From an uncultured Deinococcaceae bacterium (lineage in GTDB: Bacteria > Deinococcota > Deinococci > Deinococcales > Deinococcaceae), in the NCBI GenBank assembly GCA_964252075.1, contig CAXULY010000001.1, forward strand, positions 32,001 to 96,000: DNA of 64,000 nucleotides. The letters are read 5' to 3'. Below are positions 6,931 to 58,921 of this stretch, in pieces. A program made the position numbers and the translations under genes. Position 1 is the stretch's first letter. The number at the start of each line of letters is the position of its first letter. The notes beneath the pieces were generated by a model. That model was not told the DNA's origin. It worked only from the letters and a program-made list of their open reading frames with translations, and searched no databases.

Positions 6931-7049
6931 GCCCGGATTATGCCGTGCCGCGCGCGGGGCCGTTCGGTGAGAGACCATGAGGGAGGTGTGAAACAGCTCA
7001 TGCCGTTCGCGCCGCCCGTTGCGGTACGGTGGGCAGAGCGAGGTATGCC

Positions 7050-13000: not shown

Positions 13001-13655
13001 CAACGACCGGCGGCACATCATCGCCTTCGATTACCTCGTGAACCAGTACGTGCGGGAACTGAACGGAAGGCAGATCAGCGAGATCGCCGAGACCCTCAGG
13101 ACCGCCGGGTACGAACCGGAATCCCTGGCGATCGCAGACGTGTCCACATCCCTCAAGGCGGTCCTCAAGGAGAAATTCAACGAGCCCAAGAACCTCTTCC
13201 CGGAGGACGCCACGGAGAACCAGCGCAAAGGCCGCGAGGGTTACCAGGCGGAACAGCGGCGCGCGCGCGCGAAACTCGCGGGAGACCTCACGACCTTCGA
13301 GCTGGAATCCAGGATCATGTCCGCGCACTACACGGACGTGCCCGAAGGCCAGGTGAACGGGCAGGCGCTCGGCGAGACCGAGACGGACTTCATCACGAAC
13401 TTCGACAACGTCGAGGCGAACCTGCCCAGCTACGAAGCCCTCGAGGGCAAAACGGCGGGCATCCGCGCGGGCATGCAGCGCCCCTCGCGCCTCTACCGCG
13501 ATGCGCGGGCGGACCTCATCAACATTGAGGAAGGGCTGGCGCACCTCGCGGAGTTTTCGAAGGGCGGCAATCAGGCGTCGAACGACGCCATCCGCGCCGC
13601 CATCGAGAAAGGCATGCGCTGCGCCATCCGGCTGTCGGAACTGCTGAACCAATAA
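7050..13655 (+). CDS. Large polymorphic toxin / candidate CIS cargo with several C-terminal toxin domains
   Basis: GAGG SD before ATG 7050. K/A-rich linker, long A/Q-rich helical region, hydrophobic Gly-zipper (~10070-10560), then GDDAGHRIG...NL...N...ENRW nuclease, LYRV...GQF...VPAGT...GGTRQ domain and DRRHII...NLFPE...NQRKG domain. Confidence 0.85.
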   Translation: MTEPGFDWRSPEQREDPLRLSVRSATELLTLPQADPIAPTLEAAEARFFERAPHAQRALAQPVLEAARLERQDAAQHTERRAALQGRAEELRATLPDGALDAAHEREAQRRNPALPAHFATPPHHRAPGARASAQDWVGLYAYEMHGQQQLGGARGIEGRAAAAIQRRAATGLKDAYRDLPPEGRAEGFGGQLAALAEWPLGGQVSQAVLARLPAGERARVQAALMGAQRQRRDLGSQDARALELQGLEGQLAQGVAPLAERLPAGLPADVRRQVQLGMNAGPGAFEAAGSAMDGAAQITARSRGERTGSVPALPQADGVGAPKGRRAPKKAPAGAKRATRAKDDPKGKAKKAPANAKAEKGKGKTTAKAKGKAAGAKAPKANGKAPTAGARAKGAAPRAGKGAALPTPGAGGGAAGGPQALRAVPLAEMPKGISAKPVLQVDGTAFYDLGQWKQLEAQEAQQARQVHVGTATRTGASAPQAAPRASTAHPLKQVGRTVSAAQIKAAEAAERKAAEGEMHAFVTRSQAKIKALDGARRAVAPTVQAAAKGAQAKVAGAARTATAQLASAAASATAKAQAAAASARTKIQAEFSSTTSAIKAATRSNQAALNAQHTAAVSALAKGLTSLNSGVSSAFTAAQGRAHTIGQSVGGAALAKGNQRAAAYAAEPLPHQSGWDNFVNGKDYPAKKRQAKVDAARQVGQSYHDELIKHAEEYAAKIPEGQAQVTDGNQKLHDEYLKTLDQQHTDSVTALHDAETQFIQQATTTRDQQLQAVAQQLRQAVAGINRQHTALKGQVQQQSSSQQAAISKAAASSISGLQKAADTATSGLHKQVSGIQGQLKGKGVPDVQALKAQLGTADQEIAGGVAAAQQSITGGARTASAQLNGQAGSAAAALAGTASQGAQGMNQAGAQAASAAAQVATGAAQALKGLAKGHEAALKALTEKVKSGTQSIQKGFDADAKSVTTGVRDQLKQAGDTFQGDLTKGMADEDAKITEEANKAADKVQPRWKGWVSIVIDIVIAIAVTALVICTGGVAGVVLGIVAGAVGGVLGQLAKDGLNGEMSSWQTYAAAALGGAIGGAVGAGGGALSGKLAGMAGEKLLAMGAGKVASGAVKFGVDFVGNNITGLVGQAVSGFINNKAFGTPFSLSDVFSVKNIAQNALMTGVGSAAGKYFEHNPGVVNRMRGMAGFGPKPQVHVTASPEHAAAAPEGAGTHAPTGKTEGAPTTPKGSTEAPRAPTTGREAPVPPATREAPAQSAAPRTTEIPAPHRSKAPGAPEGRGNTTPRAGGSETTRSAGDRTTEGQTRNTAPEGNARGEGQSPEPIAARHPEGAPGTGGKPDVSEQFRTNTFERNGRTYVETTGRLGQPGEVQTHRDPSAQARVSRGTGDDAGHRIGDRFGAPGDESNLAQQNWRANRNGTFKQLENRWAAALKDGVQIEAKVTDITRAGETRPFMRRAEWTETHPDGSVTHHELDFANTHTPESRSKQNIPDTVSEPQANNVTHVDFRNRRVIEGPQGPTPPEGSAPTRPGKAEGRNEGAPETATGDTPETVSARNRRSDDPDLNPTSVADLPGTVSGTYDYTNPGPLSPDKAATFAGQRYRTVKLEQDLVLYRVGEEGKPLGQFFDTKAPMSEIQARIDKAVLPRWPGGGESPIQMVHEVRVPAGTDIHVGEVANQGEYYLGGTRQVVVIEPWKIPGLEVLSSKPVNRIEVQPAIPAERVGDVQPLIERAQATPPTVDGAGPPTPQGGEGAPPVSAGPKSVTAEELAAGLPAHLRDRVPVEVHADLPSNTVRVRYEAENGVIKAVKLEAGPQATPRDIELHAQTVQAMQKYMGLQGRVRAALDRLMRLVGLDGTPKVGTRAWEAHLELQKLDGIIQERQAALAGSDDAATRSRLEADIQHLEQQLATHEATLGRMDLNPGEGYVAADGIRNGTHPNTLEFNFDQIRKDLFGKKGRPGWSEDTKQTLKSEYPSMHDADTTNLVPGNDRRHIIAFDYLVNQYVRELNGRQISEIAETLRTAGYEPESLAIADVSTSLKAVLKEKFNEPKNLFPEDATENQRKGREGYQAEQRRARAKLAGDLTTFELESRIMSAHYTDVPEGQVNGQALGETETDFITNFDNVEANLPSYEALEGKTAGIRAGMQRPSRLYRDARADLINIEEGLAHLAEFSKGGNQASNDAIRAAIEKGMRCAIRLSELLNQ

Positions 13656-13658
13656 GGC

Positions 13659-14162
13659 GTGCACATGAACGATATGGAACTTCTGCAGGCAGCGACGGGT
13701 GAGCAGGTCACGCCCGAAGTGACGCTCAGGGCGAAAGCGCTGGGTCAACGCCCCACCCGGGAACTCACGGCGTTCCTCCTGAACCAGCTGGAGAACAAGG
13801 AGACCAGCTGGAGGCTCCTGGCGGTCTCCCTGCTTGGCCTGAACGACGACCACGAGCCCAGCGCGGCGGAGCGGGCGGCCATCGAGGAGCGGCTGAACGA
13901 CGAGTCCCCACTCGTCCGCGTGAAGGCGGCCGCGGCGGTCGCCGCCTTCGGGAAAGGTCCGAGCGAGGCGCTCAGCGCGGCCTTCCGGGCGGAGCACGCC
14001 AGCGGCCCGAAACTCGCGATGTTCGAGGCGCTCCTCGAGGTGAACGGTGTGCCGTACCACCAGGTGCTCGAGTGGTCGAAGCGGGCGAAACGCGGGGAGG
14101 TCCAGATGGACCTGGAAGACGTCGAGAAGATCATCAACGGGAGCGCTCAGGGCAAGAACTGA
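13659..14162 (+). CDS. HEAT-repeat protein, candidate immunity protein
   Basis: Starts 3 nt after the toxin stop; LNDESPLVRVKAAAAVAAFG is a typical HEAT/PBS repeat. Confidence 0.75.
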   Translation: MHMNDMELLQAATGEQVTPEVTLRAKALGQRPTRELTAFLLNQLENKETSWRLLAVSLLGLNDDHEPSAAERAAIEERLNDESPLVRVKAAAAVAAFGKGPSEALSAAFRAEHASGPKLAMFEALLEVNGVPYHQVLEWSKRAKRGEVQMDLEDVEKIINGSAQGKN

Positions 14163-14351
14163 GGGCAGGGCGATCGGGGGTGTGGTTCAGGCGCGATGTC
14201 TGAGCGGTTTCGGACCAGCCCTCCGGATGCCCTTTCTCCGGTCTGCCCTGTGGCCCGGGGCGACACGACAGCGTCCCATGAAGCCAGATCGGCCCACGGG
14301 TTGCCCTTGCCGGTGGGACCCCTCCCTGAGGTCATGTGTCAGAGTGAACGC

Positions 14352-14648
14352 ATGACCACTTCCGACGTGCCACGGCTGCTCCAGGAACTCACCGACGTCC
14401 TCCGCATGGGGGGGGAGCCGCGCTGGGCGGCGAGCGTCGCGGACCTGGAGGCAGACGTGCGGGCGGAAGGGTACCTCAGCGCGGAGGGCGCCCGCGCGGT
14501 GCTGCGGCTCTTCGGCGGCTCGGGCACCCTCGGTGACGTGGTGCTGCAACCGGGCGGCAAGGTGGACTTCGCGGGGAATGAACGCCTGGACGCGCTCCGC
14601 ACGCAGCTGTACCAGGCGGCCATGCAGGCCATCGAAGCCAAGAACTGA
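14352..14648 (+). CDS. DUF6966-like small helical protein, candidate immunity protein
   Basis: LQELTDVLRMGGEPRWA...LFGGSGTLGDVVL...NERLDALRTQLY resembles the W...(F/Y)GGxGS(L/F)xD family found near toxins. Confidence 0.65.
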   Translation: MTTSDVPRLLQELTDVLRMGGEPRWAASVADLEADVRAEGYLSAEGARAVLRLFGGSGTLGDVVLQPGGKVDFAGNERLDALRTQLYQAAMQAIEAKN

Positions 14649-16186: not shown

Positions 16187-17845
16187 TCAGGAGTTCAGCT
16201 TGATGGTGCTGCCCTGGATGTCCACGCCGCCCGCGCCGCCCTGAATGCTGACGCCCTGCGTGGCGTTCAGGGACATCTTGCCGTCCGCGTTGACGTTCAC
16301 GTCGCCCTTCATTTGGATGGTGAGGGTGTTCGTCTTGGAGTCAATCTTGATCTGGTTGCCGTTCATGTCCTGCACTAGAATGCCGGGCGCGTCGTCAGAG
16401 TCGTCGAGGATGATGAGGTGCCCGAGGCGCGAGCGGTGAATGCGCTGCAGGGTCTTGCCGCCCTTCACGACCTGCTTGCTGGACTTGGGGGGCGCGTCCA
16501 CGCCGTTCCACAGCCCGCCAATGATGTACGGGTGGTGCATGTCGCCCAGCTCGAAGCCCACGAGGACCTCGTCGTTCACCTCGGGAATCCACTCCATGCC
16601 GCGCGTGGGGCCGCCGCCCGGCACCGCGATGCGCGCCCAGTCGCTCTCGTCCTTCTCGGAGAGCCACGGGAACTTCACCTTCACGCGGCCCTGCCCGAGC
16701 GGGTCGTCGTTGTTCGTGACGATGCCGATCACGAAGCCGTACTGCGTGTGTGGCTTCGTGCGCTCCTGCAGGGTGTTCGCGATGTCCGGCGCGCGCCCGC
16801 CACTCACCGTGAACTCGGTGGTGTAGCCGCTCTCCGTGCGGTAGTGGTGCGTGACGCTGGAGAGCGTGTACTTCCCCTGGTAGCGGTCACTGACGCCCGT
16901 GATGTTCAGGCTCATGCCGGCCGTCATCTTGGGGTGCCCGCCCGTCACGCCGGTCGCCTCCAGGAACTTCTGTCGGTGCTGGTCGGCGGTGCCCGTCGCG
17001 TACAGTTCCGCGAGTTTTTCCTTGCGGACCACCTGCTGCGTCACCGTGTACGGCGCGGAGAGGTCCTCCTCGCCGCCCGCCTGCGCTTCCGGGATGCCCT
17101 TGCCCTTCCCGACGGCGCTCACCACCGCGCGTTTGCGCTGGGGGTCCCAGCCGCGCACGGTGGTGCCGCTCGCCTGGTCGAGGCTGGAGAGGCGCGGCGA
17201 GAACTCGATGAGGTTCGTGCCCCACTGCACCTCGCCCGCGTCGCCCTTGGATTCCATGGGTTCGCAGTGCAGCGTCGTGCCGTCCACGTACAGCAGGTAC
17301 CCGAGGCGGCTCGCGCGGTCCCGCAGGAAATCCAGGTTCGTCTGGTTCGACTGAATCACGTAATCGTGCACGTAACTCGCGGGCCCCACCTTGGCCTGCA
17401 GGCCGAGTTCCGCCGCGATCTTCTTCACCACGTCCATGTCCGTGACGTTCTGGAAGGTGCGCGTGAAGGTGCCGCGCGAGAGTTTGTGCAGGCGGTCGTA
17501 CGCGCGCACCTTCAGCTGCTGCCCGTGCTGCAGCAGGTGCGGTTCGACCTCCACGATCTCGCCGTCGAAGACGTTCTGCTCCTGGTTGTTGTCCACCTTG
17601 ATGGTGATGGTCATCGGCACGCCGACCTTGTACGTGCCCGCGTCGTCCGTGAAGTTGTACGCGCTGGCCCGCTCGCGCAGGGGCGTGAGGTCACGCAGGA
17701 TGAGGGTCGCGACGTCCGGCATGTGCAGGCTGCTCTCGATGGTGAGTTCCTGCAGGTTCGTCATGGCGTCCGGGCTGAGGTCGCCGTTCAGGTGAATGTA
17801 GAAGTGCGGCACGGCGCCGCGCATGTTGACGGCCTGGGTCATCAC
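16187..17845 (-). CDS. vgrG: VgrG-like spike (Afp8 equivalent)
   Basis: Phage D/gp27-like N-terminus (QSNQTNLDFL, VRGWDP) and gp5 OB fold (GIVTNNDDPLGQGRVKVKFPW...WARI...PEVNDEVLVGFELGD..PYIIGGLWNG). No toxin extension. Confidence 0.93.
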   Translation of the reverse strand: MMTQAVNMRGAVPHFYIHLNGDLSPDAMTNLQELTIESSLHMPDVATLILRDLTPLRERASAYNFTDDAGTYKVGVPMTITIKVDNNQEQNVFDGEIVEVEPHLLQHGQQLKVRAYDRLHKLSRGTFTRTFQNVTDMDVVKKIAAELGLQAKVGPASYVHDYVIQSNQTNLDFLRDRASRLGYLLYVDGTTLHCEPMESKGDAGEVQWGTNLIEFSPRLSSLDQASGTTVRGWDPQRKRAVVSAVGKGKGIPEAQAGGEEDLSAPYTVTQQVVRKEKLAELYATGTADQHRQKFLEATGVTGGHPKMTAGMSLNITGVSDRYQGKYTLSSVTHHYRTESGYTTEFTVSGGRAPDIANTLQERTKPHTQYGFVIGIVTNNDDPLGQGRVKVKFPWLSEKDESDWARIAVPGGGPTRGMEWIPEVNDEVLVGFELGDMHHPYIIGGLWNGVDAPPKSSKQVVKGGKTLQRIHRSRLGHLIILDDSDDAPGILVQDMNGNQIKIDSKTNTLTIQMKGDVNVNADGKMSLNATQGVSIQGGAGGVDIQGSTIKLNS

Positions 17846-18421
17846 TCACCGCCCATCGCTGTACTTCTTGCGCAGGTCGCCGCTGTACCCCTGGTTGTCC
17901 TGCCGCACGCGCTCGCTGATCTGGTACGTGCCCTCGCCCTCCATGAGGGACTTGTGCTCCAGCGCCTCCTGGAACTCCACGCTCACCATGGCGCGCACCG
18001 GCATGCCGTTCGGCATGAACATCGTGTACTGCTGCTGCATGCTGGTGATGACAGCGTTGAACAGCCAGTTCTTGCCCCACATGAAGCGCACCTTGGGGGG
18101 GCGGCCCTTCTTGGTTTTGGGGTCGCGCAGGTCCTCGCAGATGTTCATCATCTGCCACAGGATGTCGGTGTGCGTGCGCACGTCCTTCACGGTGGTCTTG
18201 TCGTCGCGCAGGTACGTGTCGAAGAACAGCTGCATGGTGAGCTTCGCGCCGCTGCCGCCGGAGAAGGTCAGGTCGTGCGCGTCCTTGGTGCTGTTGTCGG
18301 CGGGCCCCCAGTTGTTCGTCTTGGCGACCGTGTACTCCTTGGGGTTGAACAGGCAGTCCACCTGCAGTTTCGGGCCTTCGATGGTGTAGATGGACGCTTT
18401 GGTGAGCTGACCGTCGGACAT
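17846..18421 (-). CDS. CIS tube-initiator protein (Afp7-like, lacking LysM)
   Basis: LFNPKEY...LTMQLFFDT...PPKVRFMWG...YTMFMPNGMPVRAMVSVEFQE; immediately upstream of vgrG. Confidence 0.88.
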   Translation of the reverse strand: MSDGQLTKASIYTIEGPKLQVDCLFNPKEYTVAKTNNWGPADNSTKDAHDLTFSGGSGAKLTMQLFFDTYLRDDKTTVKDVRTHTDILWQMMNICEDLRDPKTKKGRPPKVRFMWGKNWLFNAVITSMQQQYTMFMPNGMPVRAMVSVEFQEALEHKSLMEGEGTYQISERVRQDNQGYSGDLRKKYSDGR

Positions 18422-18461: not shown

Positions 18462-21400
18462 CTATTGGCACTGGCTGGGTTGCGGCGCGCCCTCGCGCCA
18501 GCCGCACCAGCGTTCGCGGTCCCCGCGCGTGCTGTACGGGCCGTAGAAGCCGTTCATGGCGTCGTTGAAGGCCACCACGAAGGTGATGTCCTCGCCGGGC
18601 TTGTTCGGCACCGTGACGTTCGCGCTCAGGTTGTAGTTGCCGCTCGTGCCGGAGATGCGCCCGCGCAGCTTGCCCTGGTCGCCCGTGCGGTCGTTGACGA
18701 AGGTGCCGGTCACCTCGTTGCCCTTCACGTTGAGTTTCAGGCGACCAAAGGGGTGCAGCCAGGTGCCGGAGAGCTGCTCCGCGCCGCTCGCGGCCTGCGT
18801 GGGGGCGCTCACGGCGACGTGCACGGTCTGCTGCACGCGCTGCCCGCCGCCGATCGCGGTGAGGACGTAGTCGGCGTCGCGCGTCACGCGCCGCGTGGCG
18901 CTGCCCTGCGGCTCCACGCTGCCCAGCCCACTCAGGGACACCCGCACGGCGCCCTCCACGCTCCAGGTGAGGGTCACGCGGCTGTTCTTCGGGACGCTCG
19001 CGTCACTCGCGGTGAAGCTCGTGATGGTGGGGGTGACGGTCGGGCGCTCGGGTTCGGGCGCCGGGGCGGGGGCCGGTTCGGGCGCGGGCGCTGGAGCGGG
19101 CGTGGGTGCCGGAGCGGGAGTGGGCGTCGCCTGCGCCGTCTTGGGCGGCAGGGCGGGCGGCATGCTGGGGTTCGCGAGGACGCTCACGCGCTGGCTGGAC
19201 TTCGCGGGCGCGCCACTCCCCACCGACTGAACCGTGAACACCGTGTTCTTCTTGATGGCAATAGCGGTCATGCCCTGCGCGGGGTACACGCGATTCATGG
19301 GGAAGATCTTGACGCGCTGCGCGCCGCGCACGTTCCAGCGCAGCACCACGCGCTGCCCTGCCGTGATCTGCGCGGGCGACACGCTGAACGCCACGACCTG
19401 CGCGGGCGCGGGCGGTATGGGCTTCGGCTTGGGTTTGGGCTGCACGACCACCGGGGCGGGCGTGGGCGCGGGTGCGGGCGTTGGGGCGGGTTTCGGCTGG
19501 ACCTGCGCGACCTTCGGCGCGGGCGTGGGCGCCGGGGTGGGTTGCGGCGCGGGCTGTGCGGGCGCGGGCGGCAGCACCAGGAGTGTCGCGGACTGCGCGT
19601 CCTGCGTGCCCTCGGCGTTGCGCGCGGTGAGCGTCAGCTGTGTGTTCTGCGCGGGCGCCGTGACGGTCATGCTGCCGGAGTTCGGGACGCTTTGCGTGCC
19701 GTTCAGGCCGTCCAGCGTGACAGACGTGGCGTTCTGCGTCTGCCAGGACAGCGTGACGCTCTCGCCCGTGCGGGGCTTGCGCGGCGTGACCTTGAAGCCC
19801 GTGACTTTCGGCGGGATGGCGCTCACGTTCGCGGCGCCGCTCGTCTCCACCTGCTGCTGGCCGTTCGTGGCGCTCAGCTTGTACACCACGCCCTGCTGCG
19901 CGGTGAGCTGCCTCGTGCCCTGCGCGGGCACCGTGCCGATCGGGTCGATGGTGACGCTGCTGGCGTTCGCGACCTTCCATGACAGCGTGATGGGGTCGCC
20001 GACCTGCGCATTCTCGGGGCTCACCTTGAAGAGCTCCACCACGGGCGCGAGGAGCCGCACGCTGGCGGTCTGCGTGACGTTCTGCGTGCCGACGTTCGCG
20101 GTGAGGGTGTACGTGGTGTCGCCCGTGACCTTCACCTGCTGCTGGCCCTGCGCGGGCACCGACCCGATGGGTTGCAGGTTCACGCTGTCCGCGTTGCGCA
20201 CCCGCCAGCGGACCGTGACGGTCTGGCCGGGCGCGGCCTGCGCGGGCGTTACCTCGAACAGGTCAATGCCGGGCGCGAGGAGCTTCACGCTGGCGCTCTT
20301 CTGCACCGCCTGCCCGCCGGAGTCCGCGCGGAGCGTGAAGGTGGTGTCCTGCGTGATCTTCTGGCGCAGCTCGCCCTTCGCGGGCTGCGTGCCGATGGGG
20401 TCGATCGTCACTTCCTTGACGTTCGCGACGTTCCAGCGCAGGGTGGCGGTCTGCCCGCTCGTGATGTTCTGCGGGTCCACCGAGAAGCTCTTCACGACCG
20501 GCGCGGGCACCTGCGGCGTGATCGTCATGAGGGTCTGCGCGGTCTTCACGCGCCCGTACGCGATGACCTGCACGTCCGTGGGCGCCGTGATGCCCTGCGG
20601 GATGATGAGCTTCTTGACGCCGCCGCCCACGCGTTTGTTCCAGGGCTTCACCAGCACGCTCACGGTGTTGCGCGTCTCGAAGTTCAGGGTGAAGGGCTTC
20701 CCGACGGGCGGGTTCTGCGGCGTGACGCTCGCCGTCACAATGGTGGGCGCCTGCAGCAGCCACCACACGATGCCGATCACCAGGATCGCGAGGATGGGGA
20801 GCGCCCACAGCGGCATCAGGGGCAGGTGCAGCAGGTTCACGTTCGCGGGCGCGCCGGGACCGCGGTCGTTCTCCGCGACCACGTGCAGGTGCCGGGGGCG
20901 CGGCGAGCCGATCCAGCGGATGGGGAGGCGCACGTTCATGCGGCTCTCGTAACTCTCGCCGGGCTGCAGCACGATGTCGCGCTGGAACTCGCTGACGCGC
21001 ACCTTGCCGATGCCTTCGCGCAGGCGCATGTAGTAGTTGTAGATGATGGTGCGGACGGGAATGATGTTGTGCAGGTTCCCGCTCGCCGGGATGTTGATCT
21101 GACTCCACGGGGACTGCAGGAACACCCCGCCCTCGTCGTCCTTCACGGTGGGGTTGTACGTGATGGGCACGTTGCTGTCGTTGCGCAGCTTGAAGGTGTA
21201 GTGCGTGCGCCGCCACGCGCTGCGGCGCTTCGGGGAGACCTCTACCGTGGTGTTCAGGAACTCCGTGACGGTCCACGTCATGGGCACGAAGCCGAACTCC
21301 GTGGGGTTCTCGCGGCTGCGCGCCACGACCTTCATCTCGTACACGCCCGCGTGGTGCTGGCTCTCGCGCGGCACAAGGACCCGCAGGGTCGTCTCGGCGG

Positions 21401-22928
21401 TCATGCCGGGGTTCAGCTGCACCTCGTGGAAGAGGTTCTGCACCCACTCGGCGGGCACGCCGTCCACCTCCAGCCGGAAGTGATCCACGGTGCGCCCGGT
21501 GTTCGCGAGCTGCACCTTCAGCAGGCGCGCCTCGCCGGGCTTCAGGGTGATGTCGTTGTCCTCGACGAGCACCCCGATGCGCGACTGCTGCACCACCCGC
21601 TGCGGTGGCTGCAGGCGCAGCCAGAAGGGCTCCACGCGCAGCACGCCGCCGCCTGGCCAGGGGGCGCGCGTGCGCGGTTCGAGCGGCACGCCGTTCAGGC
21701 TGGTGCCGTTCACGGTGTCGAGGTCCTGCACGAACACCGCGCCCTGCTCCACCTCGATGTTCAGGTGGTGGCGGGACACACCCGCGTGCTCCAGCACCAG
21801 GGTGTTGCCGGGCGCCCGCCCGAGCGTGATGGTGCCCTCGCGCAGCGGCTCCACCCGGATGAGGCGCCCGTCCGGCCCGCAGATCTGCACGCGCGGGAAG
21901 GTCGTGCGGTCCCGCAGCGGCTCGATGGGCGGGATGGGCGGCTCGGGGATGTCCGGCAGCACCACCGTGGGGTTCGGGCCCTGCGGCATGAGGCGCGACA
22001 GCACGCCCTGCAGCGCGGACTCCAGTTCGCGCGCGTCGCGGAAGCGGTACTCGGGCGCCTTCGCGAGGCAGCTCAACACGATCTCCTCGAGGTCCTGCGG
22101 GATGTCCACGCGGATCTGCCCGGGCGGGATGGGCGCCACGTGCTGGTGCTTCTCGATGGCGTCCGCGAGGTCGCGCGTCTCGAACGGCACCATGTTCGTG
22201 AGGAGTTCGTACAGGATCACGCCGAGCGCGTAGATGTCGCTGCGCACCTCGCTGCGCACGCCGCGGCACTGCTCGGGCGACATGTACGCGGGCGTCGTGA
22301 CGATCAGGCGGTCGTGCGTGCCATACGTGAAGGCCTGCAGTTCACCCACCCCGAAGTCCGCGACCTGCACGCGGTACGCCTGGCGGCCCAGGATGGCGCG
22401 CGCGGGTTGCAGCAGCAGGTTCTCGGGCTTCAGGTTGCCGTGCATGAGGTTCGCGTCGTGCGCGTACGCGAGCGCGCCCGCCACCTGCCGCGCGAGGTCC
22501 ACGGCGATCAGGAGGTCCACGAACTGCCCCTCGCGCGTGTGCTGCTGCAGGTAATGCCGCGCGGAGCCGCTCTGCGCGAGGGTCATGGTGTAGTGCGCCT
22601 TGTGCTCGCGCTCCACGAGCTCCCCGACGGGCAGGATGTTGCCGTGCGCGAGGCGCCGCCACTTCTCGAAGAGGCGCCGGAACTGCACCATCACCTGCGG
22701 CTGCGCGACGAGTTCGGGGTTCATGACGCGCAGGGCGCCCACCTGCGCCGCGTCGAGGTTCTGCGCGGCGTACACCGTGCCGAGCCACCCCTGCCCGAGC
22801 GTGCGCAGCAGCCGGAAGCCCTCGTACAGGGTGCTGCCGCCGGGCCGGTTGCCGCCCGGCGTGGGGGTGTCGGTGGTCGTGTCGTCCGGGGTGGGCCGCC
22901 CGCCCCGTTCATTCGACGTGTCGGTCAT
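18462..22928 (-). CDS. Hanks-type pseudokinase-FHA-Ig (COG1470/CisA-like)-TM-extracellular Ig-repeat protein
   Basis: LGQGWLG, HGNLKPEN, ADFG, YMSPE, SDIYALG; FHA (LGRAPGN...VSRHH...NGT); NTGRTVDHF module; TM LWALPILAILVIGIVWWLL; seven ~80-aa repeats with P/T/A linkers. Confidence 0.88.
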   Translation of the reverse strand: MTDTSNERGGRPTPDDTTTDTPTPGGNRPGGSTLYEGFRLLRTLGQGWLGTVYAAQNLDAAQVGALRVMNPELVAQPQVMVQFRRLFEKWRRLAHGNILPVGELVEREHKAHYTMTLAQSGSARHYLQQHTREGQFVDLLIAVDLARQVAGALAYAHDANLMHGNLKPENLLLQPARAILGRQAYRVQVADFGVGELQAFTYGTHDRLIVTTPAYMSPEQCRGVRSEVRSDIYALGVILYELLTNMVPFETRDLADAIEKHQHVAPIPPGQIRVDIPQDLEEIVLSCLAKAPEYRFRDARELESALQGVLSRLMPQGPNPTVVLPDIPEPPIPPIEPLRDRTTFPRVQICGPDGRLIRVEPLREGTITLGRAPGNTLVLEHAGVSRHHLNIEVEQGAVFVQDLDTVNGTSLNGVPLEPRTRAPWPGGGVLRVEPFWLRLQPPQRVVQQSRIGVLVEDNDITLKPGEARLLKVQLANTGRTVDHFRLEVDGVPAEWVQNLFHEVQLNPGMTAETTLRVLVPRESQHHAGVYEMKVVARSRENPTEFGFVPMTWTVTEFLNTTVEVSPKRRSAWRRTHYTFKLRNDSNVPITYNPTVKDDEGGVFLQSPWSQINIPASGNLHNIIPVRTIIYNYYMRLREGIGKVRVSEFQRDIVLQPGESYESRMNVRLPIRWIGSPRPRHLHVVAENDRGPGAPANVNLLHLPLMPLWALPILAILVIGIVWWLLQAPTIVTASVTPQNPPVGKPFTLNFETRNTVSVLVKPWNKRVGGGVKKLIIPQGITAPTDVQVIAYGRVKTAQTLMTITPQVPAPVVKSFSVDPQNITSGQTATLRWNVANVKEVTIDPIGTQPAKGELRQKITQDTTFTLRADSGGQAVQKSASVKLLAPGIDLFEVTPAQAAPGQTVTVRWRVRNADSVNLQPIGSVPAQGQQQVKVTGDTTYTLTANVGTQNVTQTASVRLLAPVVELFKVSPENAQVGDPITLSWKVANASSVTIDPIGTVPAQGTRQLTAQQGVVYKLSATNGQQQVETSGAANVSAIPPKVTGFKVTPRKPRTGESVTLSWQTQNATSVTLDGLNGTQSVPNSGSMTVTAPAQNTQLTLTARNAEGTQDAQSATLLVLPPAPAQPAPQPTPAPTPAPKVAQVQPKPAPTPAPAPTPAPVVVQPKPKPKPIPPAPAQVVAFSVSPAQITAGQRVVLRWNVRGAQRVKIFPMNRVYPAQGMTAIAIKKNTVFTVQSVGSGAPAKSSQRVSVLANPSMPPALPPKTAQATPTPAPAPTPAPAPAPEPAPAPAPEPERPTVTPTITSFTASDASVPKNSRVTLTWSVEGAVRVSLSGLGSVEPQGSATRRVTRDADYVLTAIGGGQRVQQTVHVAVSAPTQAASGAEQLSGTWLHPFGRLKLNVKGNEVTGTFVNDRTGDQGKLRGRISGTSGNYNLSANVTVPNKPGEDITFVVAFNDAMNGFYGPYSTRGDRERWCGWREGAPQPSQCQ

Positions 22929-23809
22929 ACGAACCTCACCTCATACTGCACGTGCGCGGGGACGTGCTGCGACACCAGCCGCTGCACGCCCGCGCGCGTC
23001 ATGTCCTCGCCGTCCTCGCCGGGGTCCGGGAGGACCACCGTGAGCGTGAAGGGCCTGCGCGGGTCCTCGATGATCTGCGGCGTGACGCCGCACCCGATCT
23101 CCAGGGCGCGCATCAGGCCGTAGCGGGTGCCGCGCCAGCGCACGAGGTGCATGGCGTCTTTCAGCCACGCGCGCTTGCGGCCCTCCGGCCAGTGCGGGTC
23201 CACCTCCAGCCCGATCCACGCCGCGAACCAGTCCAGCATGCGCTCGGGCGCGGTGGAGGGCGCGAAGTACATGTCGAGGTGGTCCTGGCGGTGCTGCAGC
23301 GGCTCCCAGATGCTCTCGAAGATCATGAGGTAGCGGCCCACGAACTCGGACTCCGTGAACATCGCGGGGAGGTAATCCATGTACGCGCTCGCGCGGCCCT
23401 GCGCGGGCGTGATGGGCAGCGTGGGACGCGCGGGCGTGATGGGCAGCGGCCGGAACTCGATGGGGGTGGGGAGCGCGTCGGGGTGCTCGGGCGGCTCGGG
23501 CGCCTCCTCACCCGGCAGGTACGCCAGCACGTACGGCCCGATCTGCACGATCACGCCCTCGTCCAGCACCATCGGCTGGTGCGGCGTGAGGCGGCGGCCC
23601 GCGAGGTACGTCTCGCCGTTCCCGAGGTCCGTGATCACGAACTGCGCGTCCAGGCGCCGCACCTCCGCGTGCCGGATGGCGATGCTGGGGTGCGGCAGCG
23701 ACAGGCCGTTGTCGGGCGTCCGCCCGATGGAGAGCAGGTTCATGTCCAGGCTGAGCATCTTGACGGTCTCACCCTGGAGCTGCACGAAGAGCTGGTCGGC
23801 CACCCTCAC
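22925..23809 (-). CDS. FHA domain fused to phage P2 gpI-like baseplate wedge protein
   Basis: N-terminal LSIGRTPDN...HAEV...ITDLG; C-terminal YLPAMF...FVGRYLMIFE...TAPERMLDWFAAWIG...RWRGTRYGL...PAH. Overlaps both neighbours. Confidence 0.88.
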   Translation of the reverse strand: MRVADQLFVQLQGETVKMLSLDMNLLSIGRTPDNGLSLPHPSIAIRHAEVRRLDAQFVITDLGNGETYLAGRRLTPHQPMVLDEGVIVQIGPYVLAYLPGEEAPEPPEHPDALPTPIEFRPLPITPARPTLPITPAQGRASAYMDYLPAMFTESEFVGRYLMIFESIWEPLQHRQDHLDMYFAPSTAPERMLDWFAAWIGLEVDPHWPEGRKRAWLKDAMHLVRWRGTRYGLMRALEIGCGVTPQIIEDPRRPFTLTVVLPDPGEDGEDMTRAGVQRLVSQHVPAHVQYEVRFV

Positions 23810-25821
23810 TCCACCGTGATGGTGTGCACGTCGGACACCACCAGGCCCTGCGGGGGGAGGAGCAGCTGCGCGCTGATCGGCTCGCGCGTCTCCATCTGGC
23901 CGGGCTCACTCAGAAACACCTGCACGTCCTCCACGAAGTCCACGCCCGGCACGGTGCGCAGCAGGCTGTACAGCTCCGCGAGGTGCAGGGGCCGCCCGAA
24001 CTCCCAGCCCTGGCGGTTCGCGCCGCCCGTGTGCGGGTTCAGGTAGCGGTACAGCAGCGACTCCGCGGCGCGTTGCACGTCCACCCGGAAGGGCCGCGTG
24101 CTGCCCACCGGGACGCGCAGCTGCGCGTGCACGCTCACCCAGAAGAACTGCGGGCTGCGCACCTCCAGGGTGGTGCCCACCATGCGGCGCTCGTCAAGGT
24201 GCGTCTGCACGCTGGAGCGCAGCTCCGCACTGAGCGTCAGCTGGTCCGGCGCGATGCGGCCGGGCCGCACCTCGATGGCCGGAAGCACCACCATCGTGAC
24301 CTGACCGGGCTGCACGTCCAGCGCGCGGATCTGACCGGGGAAGAACATCTCGGCGGCGCCGCCCGCGAGGTTCGGGGTGATGCAGCGCGAGCGCGCCACG
24401 CCCTCCACCTGCGCGGCGAGGAACTCGTAATCGTCGGCGGTGACGGCGCGCGTGCGGGTGCGCAGCACGTGTGGGACGCGCACCACGGCGTCCTCCAGGG
24501 TTTGCGCGTTGCGGCCCCCCACGGCGGGCGCGTGGTTCGTGACGCGCGCGACGTACGGGATGCTGGCCTTCATGACGGTGATGGTGTGCGCGGGGACGTT
24601 GCCCTGCACGCCGCCGCCGTGGCAGTAGCGCAGCATGCGGAGCGTCGCGCCCTTGGGCGGCACGCCGCCGAAGCGGTACACCGTGCCGTCCGGCTGCAGC
24701 AGCGCCGGGCCGAAGGTCACGGTGCCGTCAATGTGGTCCAGCCTGAAGTTCAGGTCGCCGGGGCCGCTCTCCGCGAAGTCCTGCACGTAGCGCCACGCGC
24801 TGGTCGGCTCGCCCGTCTGCTCGCACACGATGGCGTCGCCGTCCTCCAGCCACAGCACGGGGCTGTTCAGCAGCTTGAAGCTCTGGCCGGGCGTGCCGTC
24901 GCTGCGCCCCAGCACCTCGCCGCGCACCACGACCGCGTGGCGCGCCGTCACCGACCCGCCGCGCGACTCCACCCGCAGGGACTCGATGTCCGGGGAGACC
25001 TTGTAGCCCGCGTAATTCTGCTCGCTCGTGATGCGGCAGCGCAGCCAGTACCCGCGCTGCCCGAAGAACTCCTCTTCGGCCATGGCGGGCACCCGCAGGA
25101 TGATCTCGCCGGACACGTTGAAGGCGAGCGTGCCGTCGTACTCGACGGTGCAGGTCGCCCAGCGGTTCAGGCTGCCCTGCCACACCTCCCACACGAAGGG
25201 CGGTTCCTTGGGGTTCACGCCCGCACCGCCCGCCACCTCGCACGCCAGCATGAGCGCCATCACGTGCGCGCTGTGGTCATGCTCGAAGCACAGGTAGAAG
25301 GCGTCGCCCGCGACGGGCTCCGGGGAGAACACCGCGATCTTATGCCCCAGCACGCCCAGGCGCTCCAGGTCGTGCTGCACCACCTCGCCCGCGCCGAGCG
25401 CGTTGCCGGTGAAGGCGCCGCGCAGGTGCGGCGGCGAGATGGTCAGGTCCGCTTCCGTGGAGAACACGATGGCCTCACTGACCTCCGTGCGGACCGTCGC
25501 GACCTCCGTGCCCTCGTTGATGGTGATGGGTTCCGCCTGCGCCGCGGAGAGGTAGAAGGTGATGGGCGCGACCGCCGCGCGCGGCGGGTCGAGGTCCACG
25601 CCGATCATCTCCAGGAACTTCACGAACATCTTCTCCGGCACCTGGTTCACGCGGAAGAGCAGCAGGTCGGTCATCCACGCGAAGACCTCCAGCAGCGCGA
25701 TGCCGGGGTCGCTGGTGTTGTGGTCCGTCCACTCGGGGCAGTACTGCGGGATCAGCTGGCGCGCCTGCGCGACGATGTCGTCGAAGCGGCGGTCGTCGAG
25801 GTTGACGGTCGGGAGCGGCAT
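23806..25821 (-). CDS. Baseplate J-like assembly protein (Afp11 equivalent)
   Basis: MPLPTVNLDDRRFDD...CPEWTDHNTSDPGIALLE, GRSDGTPGQ, GGVQGNV and RAVTADDYE. Confidence 0.93.
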   Translation of the reverse strand: MPLPTVNLDDRRFDDIVAQARQLIPQYCPEWTDHNTSDPGIALLEVFAWMTDLLLFRVNQVPEKMFVKFLEMIGVDLDPPRAAVAPITFYLSAAQAEPITINEGTEVATVRTEVSEAIVFSTEADLTISPPHLRGAFTGNALGAGEVVQHDLERLGVLGHKIAVFSPEPVAGDAFYLCFEHDHSAHVMALMLACEVAGGAGVNPKEPPFVWEVWQGSLNRWATCTVEYDGTLAFNVSGEIILRVPAMAEEEFFGQRGYWLRCRITSEQNYAGYKVSPDIESLRVESRGGSVTARHAVVVRGEVLGRSDGTPGQSFKLLNSPVLWLEDGDAIVCEQTGEPTSAWRYVQDFAESGPGDLNFRLDHIDGTVTFGPALLQPDGTVYRFGGVPPKGATLRMLRYCHGGGVQGNVPAHTITVMKASIPYVARVTNHAPAVGGRNAQTLEDAVVRVPHVLRTRTRAVTADDYEFLAAQVEGVARSRCITPNLAGGAAEMFFPGQIRALDVQPGQVTMVVLPAIEVRPGRIAPDQLTLSAELRSSVQTHLDERRMVGTTLEVRSPQFFWVSVHAQLRVPVGSTRPFRVDVQRAAESLLYRYLNPHTGGANRQGWEFGRPLHLAELYSLLRTVPGVDFVEDVQVFLSEPGQMETREPISAQLLLPPQGLVVSDVHTITVE

Positions 25822-25826
25822 GGGTC

Positions 25827-26246
25827 TTACCTCAGGGTGCCCGTCTCGACGGGCAGGCGGTAGAAGGGAAAGACCAGGGACTGCTCCACGTGGGTCTCCC
25901 GGATGCGGTAATCGATGCTGATCATGATGCGCTCGGGGTACGCGTCGTCGATGTTGGCGTCCACCTGCCGCACCTCGATGCGCGGCTCCCACGTGCGCAG
26001 CGCCTCATCCACGTAGTACGAGGCGAGGCCCAGGGTGGTCGCGTCGCTCGGCGCGAACATCAGTTCGTGAATCTGGCAGCCGTACTCGGGGCGCATCACG
26101 CGCTGCCCTTTGGGCGTCATGAGGATCATCAGGATGGACTGCTCGACGGCGCGCACGCCGCTCACCAGCGCCACGCGCCCGCGCGCGTTGGTGCTGACGG
26201 GAAAGGCCCAGCCGGTGCCAAGGTGGTCGCTCACATCTTCTCCCAT
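25827..26246 (-). CDS. gp25/GPW baseplate protein (Afp9 equivalent)
   Basis: LGTGWAFP...ILMTPKGQRVMRPEYGC...WEPRI...LVFPFY. The start may be GTG at 26234. Confidence 0.93.
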   Translation of the reverse strand: MGEDVSDHLGTGWAFPVSTNARGRVALVSGVRAVEQSILMILMTPKGQRVMRPEYGCQIHELMFAPSDATTLGLASYYVDEALRTWEPRIEVRQVDANIDDAYPERIMISIDYRIRETHVEQSLVFPFYRLPVETGTLR

Positions 26247-26395: not shown

Positions 26396-28450
26396 TCACG
26401 CGCGCCCCCAGCCGTCGAAGCTGCGGTCGTTCAGGGTGAGCCGCCCGAGCTTGCGCCATTCCGCCGTGATGGCGCCCTGCAGCATCTCCATGCTGAGGCG
26501 CTCCCCGCGCGCCGCCGCCATGAACGCCGCCGTGAGCGCCACGCTGCGGATGTTGCCGCCCGCCAGCTTCACCTGCGCGAGCTGGTCGAAATCCACGCCC
26601 GACAGGTCCATCTGCGGGGGGAAGGCGCGCAGCCAGATGCGCTTGCGTTCCGGCGCCTCGGGCGGGCGGAAGTTCAGCACGAAGCGGATGCGGCGCATGA
26701 ACGCCACGTCCATGCTGCTCTCCAGGTTCGTGGTGAGAACCGCGAGGCCCGAGTAACTTTCCATGCGCTGCAGGAGGTAATTCACCTGGATGTTCGCGTA
26801 GCGGTCGTGCGCGTCTTTCACGTCGCCGCGCTTCCCGAACAGCGAGTCCGCCTCGTCGAACAGCAGGATCACGCCGCCGTCATCCGCCGCGTCAAAGATC
26901 TTCTTGAGGTTCTTCTCGGTCTCGCCGATGTACTTGCTGACCATGCTGGAGAGGTCAATGCGGTACAGGTCCAGTTTCAGCGCGGACGCGATCACTTCCG
27001 CCGCGAGGGTCTTGCCGGTGCCGCTCGGCCCGGAGAACAGGGCGCTGATGCCCAGCCCGCGCGCGTTCCGGCCCATGCCCCAGGCCTCGTACACCTGCGC
27101 GCGGTGCCGCACCTGCTCCACCACCTGCTGAATGAGCGCGAGGTCGCCTGGCGGCAGGATCAGGTCGTCCCACGTGACGTTCCCCGCGAGGCGCTCCGCG
27201 AGCCGCCCGACCTTCTGACGCCCCGCGAGGCGGCACGCCTCCCACGCGGCCTCCAGCTTCGCGCCGTCCACGGCGCCGCTCTGCCCGTGCTTTACGCCCT
27301 GTGCGAGGCTCCCGATGGCGCTGGCGTTCAGGTCGAACTGGTCGGTGAGCTGCGCGAGTTCCGGCGCGCCGTCCGTCGTGAGGCCGAGCGCCTGCACCCA
27401 CAGCTGGCGCTGCTCGGGCCGCGTGGGTTTCTGCACCTCCACTGCCAGCACCGGGCGCTGGCCGGGCAGCACCAGCGGCTCCTCAACCAGCAGCACCAGG
27501 GGGCCCTGCAACTGCGCCACCACCGACGCCAGCAGCTTCTCGAGTTTCGCGGTCGGCCAGCGCTCGGGGTTAACGTCCAGGTCGCCCAGGCGCGCCTCCA
27601 GAATCACGGAGAGGCCGTGCAGCTGCGTCTCGCGCGCCCACAGCGTGAGGTCGCGCGAGACGGGCGCGTCGTCTTCCAGGAACGCCGCGAAGTTCAGGTG
27701 CAGCATGGGGCGCCCCAGGTGCGGCAGCAGCGCGTGCGCGACCTCCGCCTGCCCGCGCGCGTCCCGTCCGTGCAGCTGCACGATGGCGCGCGGGTCCTGC
27801 TGCAGGTGCCCGAGCGCCTCCAGCGCCCGCTCGCGTTGCGTGTCCGAGAGCAGCACGCGGTCCACGCCGCTGCCCAGGTAGCGCGCGAGGCGCGGGTTCA
27901 GGCGGTCGTCCCCGAAGATGAACGCCAGGATGGACGGGTCGAGCGTGAGGGCCGCGAGGCTGTGCCCGTCGCGGCCCTCGCGGCGCTGCATGAGCTGCCA
28001 GCGCAGCAGCGGCGCGTCGTCCGTGAGGGCGCGCGGGTCGCCGTCGAACCAGGACAGCGCGAGGTGGCGCGTCACGGCGCCCGACTCCGCGACGTCCGGC
28101 GCGTCGTGGAAGGCCGCCGCGAGGCGCCGCAGGCGCAGCGGGTGCGCCTCCGCGATCAGGCCCAGCATCAGCACCGCGCGCTCGAAGGCGGTCAGGGCGA
28201 AGGTCTGCGCGAGGACCGAGAAGCGCGACTGCCCGTCATCGAGGGGGTTGTGCAGGCCGCCGTCGCTGCTGCGGCCCTCCAGCCGTGCCTCCAGGCGCTC
28301 CAGGAAGGCCAGCAGCGCGTCCGACACGCCCGCCGCGTCCCAGCTGGGTGGGGGTGCGGGTGTCGCTTCACGCTTCGCGCCCGTCCGGCTGGGCGAGCGG
28401 GTGTTCGGCTTGGCGTCCGGGGTGGTGGAGTTCGCGGCGGCTCTGGGCAT
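26396..28450 (-). CDS. CIS AAA+ ATPase (Afp15/Pvc15 equivalent)
   Basis: TWDDLILP, Walker A GPSGTGKT, VSKYIGETEKNL, Walker B LLFDEADSLFGKR, DRYAN..VNYLLQRME. Confidence 0.93.
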   Translation of the reverse strand: MPRAAANSTTPDAKPNTRSPSRTGAKREATPAPPPSWDAAGVSDALLAFLERLEARLEGRSSDGGLHNPLDDGQSRFSVLAQTFALTAFERAVLMLGLIAEAHPLRLRRLAAAFHDAPDVAESGAVTRHLALSWFDGDPRALTDDAPLLRWQLMQRREGRDGHSLAALTLDPSILAFIFGDDRLNPRLARYLGSGVDRVLLSDTQRERALEALGHLQQDPRAIVQLHGRDARGQAEVAHALLPHLGRPMLHLNFAAFLEDDAPVSRDLTLWARETQLHGLSVILEARLGDLDVNPERWPTAKLEKLLASVVAQLQGPLVLLVEEPLVLPGQRPVLAVEVQKPTRPEQRQLWVQALGLTTDGAPELAQLTDQFDLNASAIGSLAQGVKHGQSGAVDGAKLEAAWEACRLAGRQKVGRLAERLAGNVTWDDLILPPGDLALIQQVVEQVRHRAQVYEAWGMGRNARGLGISALFSGPSGTGKTLAAEVIASALKLDLYRIDLSSMVSKYIGETEKNLKKIFDAADDGGVILLFDEADSLFGKRGDVKDAHDRYANIQVNYLLQRMESYSGLAVLTTNLESSMDVAFMRRIRFVLNFRPPEAPERKRIWLRAFPPQMDLSGVDFDQLAQVKLAGGNIRSVALTAAFMAAARGERLSMEMLQGAITAEWRKLGRLTLNDRSFDGWGRA

Positions 28451-28480: not shown

Positions 28481-29305
28481 TCAGCGCAGCGTGACCAGCG
28501 GGGTGCCGGGCGTGGTGTTCACGAGCGTCCATTCGTCGCGGCCCGGCGCGCGCACCAGCAGCTGACGCACCTGGCTGTGCGCCTGGTCTAGGTAGAACGC
28601 GCCGCCCTCCTGGCTGACGCTCAGGCCCGCGCGGTCCGGGAGGCGCACGTCCGCGCCGATGATGGGCTGCCCATCCGGGTCCAGCAGGCGCCACGCCGTG
28701 CGCCGGAAGCCGGTGGCGACGTCGTCGTCCCCAATCTGCCGGAAGCGCACGCTCTGGTCCAGCACCAGGGGCCGCAGGTACTCGATGTTCAGGTCGAGCG
28801 GCACGGTCAGCACGTAATGCAGGCCGGGGCGGGGCGCGGCACCCAGGTTCCCCCAGATGTCGCTGGGGCGGGGCGCGCCCTCCGGGTAGCACGCGACGCC
28901 CTGAATGGGGGTGTCGAGTTCGCGCGCCTCGGGCGGCAGGTAGGCGTCCGGCCAGTCGCTGTTGCGCATGAGGGTGGCGAGCACCCGCCACAGCACCAGC
29001 CACTCTTGCTCGTCCAGTTCGTTCAGTTGCGACTTGAAGAACACGTTGATGACGTACTTCAGGTCAATGCGCCGGGGCCGCAGGCGCTGCACCTCGCGCA
29101 GGTCGCCACGGCGCGTCTCGAACTCACTCATGCGCAGGCGCAGGTTCTCGGAGATGTCGTACAGGTAGAAGTTCAGGGTGGGGCGGTTCACGGAGGACGC
29201 CCACTCGCGCGTGGGCACCGCGAAGCTGATGTCCAGCTCGTCCTCGGGGAGCTGGCCGTCGCGGTACAGCAGCTGCTTCAGGGCCTCGTGCAGGGAACCG
29301 ATCAC
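28481..29305 (-). CDS. DUF4255 / Afp16-Pvc16 cap protein with C-terminal extension
   Basis: DISFAVPTREW...PTLNFYLYDISENLRLR...DIWGNLG..PRPGLHYVLTVP, plus a beta-rich tail (LLDPDGQPIIGADV). GTG at 29305 follows the PAAR stop. Confidence 0.85.
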   Translation of the reverse strand: MIGSLHEALKQLLYRDGQLPEDELDISFAVPTREWASSVNRPTLNFYLYDISENLRLRMSEFETRRGDLREVQRLRPRRIDLKYVINVFFKSQLNELDEQEWLVLWRVLATLMRNSDWPDAYLPPEARELDTPIQGVACYPEGAPRPSDIWGNLGAAPRPGLHYVLTVPLDLNIEYLRPLVLDQSVRFRQIGDDDVATGFRRTAWRLLDPDGQPIIGADVRLPDRAGLSVSQEGGAFYLDQAHSQVRQLLVRAPGRDEWTLVNTTPGTPLVTLR

Positions 29306-29307
29306 GG

Positions 29308-58856: not shown

Positions 58857-58921
58857 CACGAGTATTTTAAGGGGAAAGCGGTGAGGAACTCGACAGGGGC
58901 GCCGTGCGCTAGCTTGAAGCC

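Follow-up and report, generated by a model that had tools for sequence, protein, structure and literature searches.

It is an open question how cytoplasmic contractile injection systems (CIS) get to the membrane and what makes them fire; CisA answers it for Streptomyces only. In the Streptomyces cisA mutant, the particles remain extended, and for CisA itself fractionation and a PhoA/LacZ dual reporter have been used. CisA is a bitopic protein that is encoded after the baseplate genes and is needed for firing (PMC12237407). As published, it comprises 468 residues and is divided into a cytoplasmic region (residues 1–285) and a periplasmic region (residues 310–468), with a periplasmic C-terminal domain of ~160 residues that is described as substrate-binding-like (PMC12237407). 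The CIS of Deinococcota and Chloroflexota form a clade in subtype IId beside the cytoplasmic CIS of Streptomyces, and those of Deinococcus, D. aquatilis included, are described as intracellular, particles having been obtained from D. aquatilis and D. grandis (PMC12998442). The same paper describes Roseiflexus as being without close cisA homologues and states that the mechanism may differ in Chloroflexota and Deinococcota, since close homologues of cisA are absent there (PMC12998442). Here, a gene is described from a 64,000-nucleotide stretch of an uncultured Deinococcaceae bacterium (contig CAXULY010000001.1, positions 32,001 to 96,000), which is referred to as the window. The gene lies at 18462..22928 on the minus strand, directly after the baseplate wedge gene cis12, and its product, P0001, is the best candidate for the adaptor at the membrane, or the trigger, that is missing from this lineage. 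All positions are window coordinates, and residue numbers are those of P0001 unless another protein is named.

Several other systems provide points of comparison. In type VI secretion systems (T6SS), the components of threonine phosphorylation are the kinase PpkA, the phosphatase PppA and the FHA scaffold Fha1/TagH. The PpkA-Fha pair shares with the present locus a membrane-bound Hanks-type kinase, an outside sensor domain and an FHA reader, all encoded in the locus of a contractile machine. It differs in that here one FHA domain is fused to the baseplate wedge and a second resides inside the kinase protein, in that the kinase is predicted to be dead in this organism, and in that the locus resembles those of extracellular CIS (eCIS; Pvc16, AAA, eCIS_core and gp19 tube) and not those of T6SS. 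In type III secretion, the inner-ring proteins YscD/PrgH (PF16697) likewise have an FHA fold beside a single transmembrane (TM) helix, as a docking module of an injection machine. The FHA-like domain of YscD is phospho-independent, whereas the FHA domain of P0001 retains the residues that bind phosphothreonine. Finally, in Mycobacterium tuberculosis the dead kinase domain of the membrane protein MviN scaffolds the FHA protein FhaA; MviN differs, as it is a polytopic lipid II flippase that is phosphorylated by PknB, has another domain order and is not associated with a CIS (PMC12599244). Full-text searches of the literature turned up nothing on kinases or FHA proteins encoded with eCIS or cytoplasmic CIS, and kinase/FHA control was found for T6SS only. 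The words "kinase" and "FHA" are absent from the main text of PMC12998442, whose figures and supplements draw the clusters and may show the gene unlabelled.

The reading preferred here is that P0001 is a membrane docking adaptor or firing trigger of a cytoplasmic, Streptomyces-like (IId) CIS, analogous to CisA and to PpkA-Fha, and we place its probability at about 50%. If so, Ser/Thr-kinase/FHA control would extend from T6SS to eCIS-like machines. P0001 and its FHA-tagged wedge are a concrete, testable candidate in culturable, CIS-producing Deinococcus. In addition, the copies with intact motifs in Chloroflexota and Gemmatimonadota and the decayed copies of Deinococcus form a natural pair for dissection.

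Domains of P0001 and of the Cis12 wedge

The frame of P0001 is open across 1488 codons and ends with a TAG at 18462-18464. Its ATG overlaps the TGA of cis12 (ATGA) and is preceded by a Shine-Dalgarno-like gaggtgagg. From the N-terminus, the protein consists of a pseudokinase, an FHA domain, two Ig-like domains, a single TM helix, seven repeats and a barrel (open frame and Pfam), all encoded on the minus strand. A preliminary description, made from the letters of the window, had given the order as kinase, FHA, Ig modules, one TM helix and ectodomain, and its nucleotide ranges prove right within a few codons by Pfam, AlphaFold2 (AF2) and hydropathy.

The Hanks-type kinase domain spans residues 39-297 (22038..22814; Pfam Pkinase 1e-30, 107.5 bits). 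Motif alignments show that the beta3 Lys is replaced by Arg (ALRV) and HRD by HGN, in support of the earlier label of pseudokinase, and that DFG, the catalytic-loop Asn (LKPEN) and SPE are retained. The beta3 Arg, together with HGN or HGD, is found in 20/20 kinases of the Deinococcus clade, two pairs of which are the same genome twice. Because the beta3 Lys and HRD are lost, and this loss is common to the clade, the kinase is predicted to be catalytically dead; nucleotide binding would still be possible. Outside Deinococcus, most CIS-linked kinases retain their catalytic motifs. Lys, HRD and DFG are intact in Chloroflexota (L047, L049 and L057) and in some Gemmatimonadota (L041, L042 and L061), and partly degenerate kinases occur in L044 (HGA), L048 (HGD) and L020 (HWQ). 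Ahead of the kinase, P0001 carries a Thr/Pro-rich tail (residues 1-31, MTDTSNERGGRPTPDDTTTDTPTP..., 22836-22928). This tail is missing from the six Deinococcus-clade orthologues with printed N-termini, which start ~10 residues before the kinase domain; either the lineage has a phospho-acceptor tail of its own or the start site is in question.

The kinase is followed by a linker with the motif LMPxGPxPT[VLMI][VR]L[PS] (21954..21992), which was defined by conservation among orthologues and includes T321 and L324. The motif, with its PT-x-x-L core, is conserved in all Deinococcus-clade orthologues listed, and P315 is invariant in the alignment of family members. T321/L324 is plausible as a candidate pTxxL ligand for an FHA domain. 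The FHA domain of P0001 itself occupies residues ~361-442 (21603..21848), with the Pfam FHA match at 367-420 (1.2e-12), and is canonical, reading GR...SRHH...NGT. The GR, SxxH and NG elements are all present and these residues are conserved in orthologues. The same region also passes Pfam Yop-YscD_cpl (residues 361-442, 37.3 bits versus a cut-off of 33.2).

The second FHA domain is carried by the neighboring wedge protein, FHA-Cis12 (22925..23809, minus strand; Pfam, NCBIfam and alignment). This protein has an N-terminal FHA domain (its residues ~10-100; Pfam FHA 8.3e-12, TIGR03354 VI_FHA 6.4e-10), a Pro-rich linker and a Cis12/Tail_P2_I core (its residues ~142-290). The core matches a chain of 190 residues, of which PDB 9gtp contains six copies; the FHA domain matches GarA/OdhI. 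GR is invariant in all sequences aligned. The Ser of SxxH, which contacts the phosphate in characterized FHA domains, is Ala in 15/15 Deinococcus-clade sequences and Ser in 12/12 others, and the NG loop is also altered in the clade. Decay in the Deinococcus clade has hit both partners: the kinase (K->R and HRD->HGN/HGD) and the Cis12 FHA domain (Ser->Ala).

Between the FHA domain and the membrane lie the two Ig-like domains. Domain 1 (residues ~451-554, 21267..21578) matches Pfam FixG_C at residues 472-537 (29.5 bits versus a cut-off of 25.6), and relatives match NPCBM_assoc and CARDB; by its sequence, domain 1 belongs to the NPCBM_assoc/FixG_C/CARDB type. The Ig pair of P0001 differs from the proteins of that family in being cytoplasmic and placed between an FHA domain and a TM helix, whereas the relatives with many repeats carry a hydrophobic segment at the N-terminus, which is a candidate signal peptide, and seem to be extracellular. 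Domain 2 (residues ~560-701, 20826..21251) was defined from the AF2 model and contains an inserted helix and a low-confidence loop. The model, of residues 440-760 from a 32-row alignment, has a mean pLDDT of 88.7 and shows two beta-sandwiches with a helix directly after them. This helix coincides with residues 707-725 (20754..20810), the sole strongly hydrophobic 19-mer of the protein (Kyte-Doolittle 2.53; next best 1.51). With the Ig pair as query, Foldseek returned generic tandem Ig/ASH/PapD-like structures only (HYDIN, CEP192, transglutaminase barrels and RbmA; TMq <=0.33) and phmmer against the PDB found nothing. The preliminary description had taken these domains as putatively of COG1470 type; a full-text search found no literature joining "COG1470" with "contractile".

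P0001 is predicted to be bitopic with its N-terminus inside and its C-terminus outside, because the kinase and FHA domains are N-terminal of the helix and a conserved Cys pair lies beyond it. The 20-residue flanks of the helix are nearly uncharged in terms of the positive-inside rule; therefore, the topology rests on domain logic. The invariant Cys pair is confined to the C-terminal barrel, which fits an outside location, and the cytoplasmic part contains Cys at 221, 287 and 350 only.

Beyond the membrane, a stalk of seven ~70-residue repeats and two Pro/Ala-rich linkers (18804..20750) was delineated from the sequence and with a self-built hidden Markov model, whose E-values are circular. The repeats comprise residues 727-781, 809-878, 885-954, 961-1030, 1040-1113, 1177-1238 and 1300-1368. 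Self-BLAST of the ectodomain gave no repeat pair at E<=1e-3, the repeats have no Pfam match at E<=0.01, and we infer that they are Ig-like in fold. The stalk ends in an eight-stranded, up-and-down beta-barrel of 113 residues (18465..18803; alignment and AF2, pLDDT 87.9), which is avidin/calycin-like. Its nearest structures are avidins and streptavidins (VIA Z 13.2 and rmsd 2.0 over 99 residues for a streptavidin variant; Foldseek TMq 0.65-0.70), and GxWxHxFG and the two Cys (RWC...C) are invariant in the orthologue alignment. The ectodomain differs by lineage (Big_2, DUF4440, BNR or cupredoxin) and the cytoplasmic module is retained, as expected of a sensor.

Such an ectodomain could also be seen as a tail-fibre-like or envelope-spanning part of an extracellular or membrane-anchored system, which binds target cells or forms a conduit through the Deinococcus envelope. 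The eCIS encode their tail fibres at this same position (PMC12237407), and an ectodomain of ~760 residues, made of repeats and tipped by a barrel of ligand-binding type, would suit such a role. However, a protein in which kinase and FHA domains precede a TM helix cannot belong to a released particle, and the particles of this lineage are described as seen inside cells only (PMC12998442), making a fibre very improbable.

Linkage to the FHA-tagged wedge across phyla

The association of P0001 with the CIS was assessed in 64 baseplate-J loci with at least 1.5 kb of sequence after cis12. An adjacent kinase-plus-Ig gene is present in 24/28 loci with FHA-Cis12 versus 0/36 loci with an FHA-less Cis12, counts that are taken over relatives so that the loci are not independent. 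Even so, the pairing of FHA-tagged wedge and kinase gene is consistent across phyla, the positive loci belonging to Deinococcota, Chloroflexota/Thermomicrobiales, Gemmatimonadota, Acidobacteriota (Vicinamibacterales) and Methylomirabilota. In 41 genomes of the family and order of the window, baseplate J occurs in nine, and the same nine carry an adjacent orthologue of P0001. The orthologue is located between FHA-Cis12 and tube/VgrG in 8/8 orthologue-bearing relatives, and one is held by the D. aquatilis locus, L051. A scan of contigs with the whole of P0001 returned no relatives, and the genome search did find them. The identities of baseplate J and of the kinase part to the window give a Spearman coefficient of 0.87 (n=24, with kin that are not independent); because the two co-vary, this suggests that the genes are inherited as one unit. 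In one locus (L017, G015:C2), both the kinase-family gene (open frames of 787/1031/1241 aa) and baseplate J (two pieces) appear split across frames, owing either to locus decay or to sequencing error.

Alternatively, P0001 might be a receptor pseudokinase of a generic kind, carried along in the locus without any function specific to the CIS. Residues 440-760 were searched against 1.84 billion representatives, yielding 2187 at E<=1e-3. Among the best 150 of these 2187, a kinase domain is present in 94, with 76 of the 94 also having an FHA domain; 17 have FHA without kinase and 39 consist of Ig modules alone, some of these being multi-repeat with an N-terminal hydrophobic segment. The TM helix follows ~110 residues past Ig domain 1 in nearly all of the best 150. 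Thus, the Ig-Ig-TM module is a common juxtamembrane element of bacterial receptor kinases, and it alone says nothing specific about CIS. The idea of a generic receptor gains from this very common architecture, from the finding that 33/88 kinase-bearing representatives deviate from the canonical residue in at least one of the three positions scored (beta3 Lys, HRD Asp and DFG Asp), and from distant paralogues without CIS in two genomes, G017 and G008. It does not account for the fixed place of the gene between cis12 and tube/vgrG with start/stop overlap, for a presence that tracks CIS 9/9 among relatives, or for one that tracks FHA-Cis12 at 24/28 versus 0/36 across phyla, and we regard it as improbable.

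The module also occurs on its own. An uncultured Actinomycetota CIS locus encodes a stand-alone, 442-residue Ig-Ig-TM protein (L076:16572-17897) that lacks kinase and FHA domains and is homologous to residues 450-725 of P0001 (hhalign 99.8%, E 8.8e-30). Weaker tblastn matches are seen in three other Actinomycetota-type loci (L168, L179 and L181).

Relation to CisA and a possible mechanism

The preliminary description had likened P0001 to CisA (SCO4242) of S. coelicolor, both in its position after the wedge gene and in its Ig and TM part. As Streptomyces is absent from the best 80 in two baseplate-J alignments, CisA was taken from Streptomyces loci as the gene after cis11 (652 aa) and cis12 (185-192 aa). 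The proteins recovered are 442-551 residues long, with one TM helix ~180 residues from the end; that of S. coelicoflavus (L246:8531-9979) has 483 residues and a TM helix at 300-318, and finds a match in 77/80 Streptomyces loci. They fit the published description of CisA (PMC12237407). Pfam places a Zn_Ribbon_1 at the N-terminus and an F5/8-type-C-like domain at the C-terminus (NADase_transloc, 27.5 bits versus a cut-off of 27). Across 12 CisA sequences, C6/C9/C20/C23 and C238/C241/C252/C255 are invariant. CisA also has a disordered region, and it has no Ig module.

The two claims fared differently. The gene for P0001 is directly downstream of cis12, as in the Streptomyces loci, so that the likeness in position stands. 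The proposed match of the Ig and TM part failed: BLASTP of P0001 against CisA gave a best E of 1.4, on low-complexity sequence, and profile-profile comparison of 14 P0001-family members with 12 CisA sequences gave an hhalign probability of 0.15%. In addition, tblastn of residues 440-760 against 80 Streptomyces loci (<=6 kb either side of cis11) had no match at E<=1e-3, and P0001 has no zinc-ribbon match in Pfam and three scattered Cys in its cytoplasmic part. With no sequence or profile similarity, no zinc ribbons and no F5/8-type-C-like domain, P0001 is therefore not a member of the CisA family. That it is a divergent, true CisA homologue fused to a kinase and an FHA domain, as first proposed, would fit the shared gene position and bitopic topology; this is refuted at the level of sequence and domains, as CisA has no Ig module and P0001 no cytoplasmic Cys motif, and is scarcely credible.

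By sequence, the likeness between the two proteins is limited to gene position and bitopic topology. Both are encoded directly after cis12 in a subtype IId cluster, both have a single TM helix in the N-in/C-out orientation, and a contact of the cytoplasmic part with the baseplate has been proposed for both. They differ in that P0001 is three times longer and contains a pseudokinase, an FHA domain, two Ig domains, repeats and an avidin-like barrel, and in that its Cis12 partner carries an FHA domain that the Streptomyces Cis12 (185-192 aa) does not have. In several actinobacterial loci outside Streptomyces (L063:12549-13124, L065:6006-6659, L066, L067 and L077), cis12 is directly followed by genes for proteins of 150-220 residues that have double zinc ribbons and, at the C-terminus, a TM helix. 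These small proteins resemble the cytoplasmic half of CisA and have no counterpart of its periplasmic domain.

As a docking adaptor or trigger, P0001 would be a functional counterpart of CisA, though no relative of it, and would span the inner membrane once; a one-piece receptor and anchor, as the preliminary description had it, is plausible. Its cytoplasmic half, comprising the dead kinase, the FHA domain with its canonical residues and a stalk of two Ig domains that ends directly at the membrane, would engage the baseplate through FHA-Cis12, which would be present in six copies, each with its FHA domain on a Pro-rich tether. The outside half, with seven repeats and an avidin-like barrel bearing a disulfide pair, would sense the envelope or a ligand, and in this way P0001 would control firing. 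In the ancestral system, the FHA domains of six Cis12 wedges may have read phosphothreonines on a receptor Ser/Thr kinase, so that an outside cue brought the baseplate to the membrane by the logic of T6SS PpkA-Fha. In Deinococcus, this pair would have been turned into a pseudokinase scaffold, for which MviN-FhaA provides a precedent (PMC12599244). Since key residues are gone from both the kinase, as writer, and the FHA domain of Cis12, as reader on the baseplate, the contact in Deinococcus probably needs no phosphorylation, or else it depends on a mark that another kinase sets and the intact, internal FHA domain reads. A complex prediction of residues 1-700 with FHA-Cis12 gave no answer (score 0.00) and counts neither for nor against binding.

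A more specific proposal is that of an FHA-phosphothreonine latch. Here, the receptor kinase would autophosphorylate on an outside cue, the Cis12 FHA domains would dock the baseplate and the CIS would then fire, a scheme that would be spread over at least five phyla and fossilised in Deinococcus. We consider this tentative, with the odds somewhat against it. If true, the latch would be a CisA-independent way for a cytoplasmic CIS to find the membrane, with a constitutive or trans-regulated dock in Deinococcus.

Alternatively, P0001 could be a signalling regulator and not an anchor, one that senses the envelope and controls the assembly, expression or licensing of the CIS through FHA contacts, as T6SS Fha1/TagH does. 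FHA domains in two adjacent genes, the intact catalytic motifs of the Chloroflexota and Gemmatimonadota copies, soluble or hairpin kinase-FHA proteins in CIS loci of Planctomycetota and Myxococcota, and the CIS described as unattached in Deinococcus cells (PMC12998442) all suit a regulator. Yet the FHA domain sits on a structural wedge, so that any FHA contact with a membrane protein would tether the baseplate by construction, and the dead kinase of Deinococcus favors a scaffold over an enzyme. We consider a purely regulatory role doubtful.

A number of points weigh against P0001 as a docking adaptor or trigger. With a dead kinase and a Ser->Ala exchange in the Cis12 FHA domain, a simple phospho-switch cannot operate in this organism, and the co-decay of motifs, which is seen in one clade only, could stem from one event in evolution. 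The kinase-FHA-Ig-TM architecture is as widespread as described above, with 2187 representatives and a kinase in 94 of the best 150, and P0001 could belong to a generic receptor-kinase family. Cryo-tomograms of Deinococcus are described as showing CIS that lie free in the cytoplasm (PMC12998442); if docking takes place, it must therefore be transient. Four of the 28 FHA-Cis12 loci (L027 and L035-L037) have no adjacent gene. Finally, no PP2C phosphatase was found among the open reading frames (ORFs) scanned, which were a part of those in the window and in the loci of nine relatives, and there is thus no sign of a complete phosphorylation cycle of the T6SS kind; the scan of this same part of the ORFs found no vWA sensor domain either.

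The surrounding locus

On the minus strand, the order of genes is Pvc16-like cap, AAA ATPase, gp25, baseplate J (Cis11), Tail_P2_I/Cis12, P0001, CIS_tube and VgrG, and Pfam bears out the gp25, baseplate J, wedge and P0001 succession noted earlier. The Pvc16-like cap (28481-29356) and the AAA ATPase (26396-28450), both assigned by Pfam, are followed by the sheath initiator gp25/Cis9 (25827..26246; Pfam GPW_gp25 2.2e-25). Baseplate J/Cis11 occupies 23806..25821 (Pfam). Its longest ORF, 23806-25992 (-), over-calls the 5' end and overlaps gp25; orthologue starts and the sequence place the start at the ATG at 25821 (MPLPTVNLDD...). Its closest relatives are from Deinococcus, the best at 86%. Overlapping stop and start codons had been reported for this series of genes. 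This is so for cis12 and P0001, and is not the case for gp25 and baseplate J, which are separated by a 5-nt spacer; for baseplate J and cis12, the choice of GTG start codon decides between a GTGA overlap and a gap of 2 nt. Downstream of P0001 are a CIS tube-family protein (17846..18421; Pfam CIS_tube 4.9e-30) and a VgrG-like spike (16187..17845; Pfam Phage_base_V and Phage_GPD), both also on the minus strand.

A divergent operon on the plus strand encodes the sheath (30034-31620) and two gp19-type tube proteins (31700-32146 and 32825-33274), all identified by Pfam. These genes are followed by one for a 1643-residue protein (33368-38299, plus strand) in which Pfam places an eCIS_core domain, of the DUF4157 type, close to the C-terminus. 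Similar eCIS_core proteins are encoded after the kinase in two Vicinamibacterales loci, L048 and L058. Convergent to VgrG, 7029-13655 (+) encodes a 2208-residue protein with an Endonuclea_NS_2 domain at its residues 1380-1459, and is followed by genes for small HEAT-repeat and DUF6966 proteins (13659-14162 and 14196-14648). The former is a candidate CIS effector and the latter are possible immunity genes. A 3151-codon ORF with a strong bias in GC at third codon positions lies at 49404-58859 (-).

Related loci contain further genes near the kinase. In Gemmatimonadota, a Sel1-repeat protein with a PEGA domain or a zinc ribbon is encoded after the kinase (L033:16222-18270 and L041:16107-17849), and L041 has a further FHA protein on the opposite strand. 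In CIS loci of Planctomycetota and Myxococcota (L079:18631-20193, L081, L088, L094 and L096), a kinase with canonical motifs is found ~4-5 kb after cis12. The L079 kinase, the one scanned against Pfam, has a C-terminal FHA domain, and there are hydrophobic segments between kinase and FHA. Three of the five (L081, L088 and L094) also have a CxxC...CxxC zinc ribbon, which brings CisA-like and kinase/FHA elements together.

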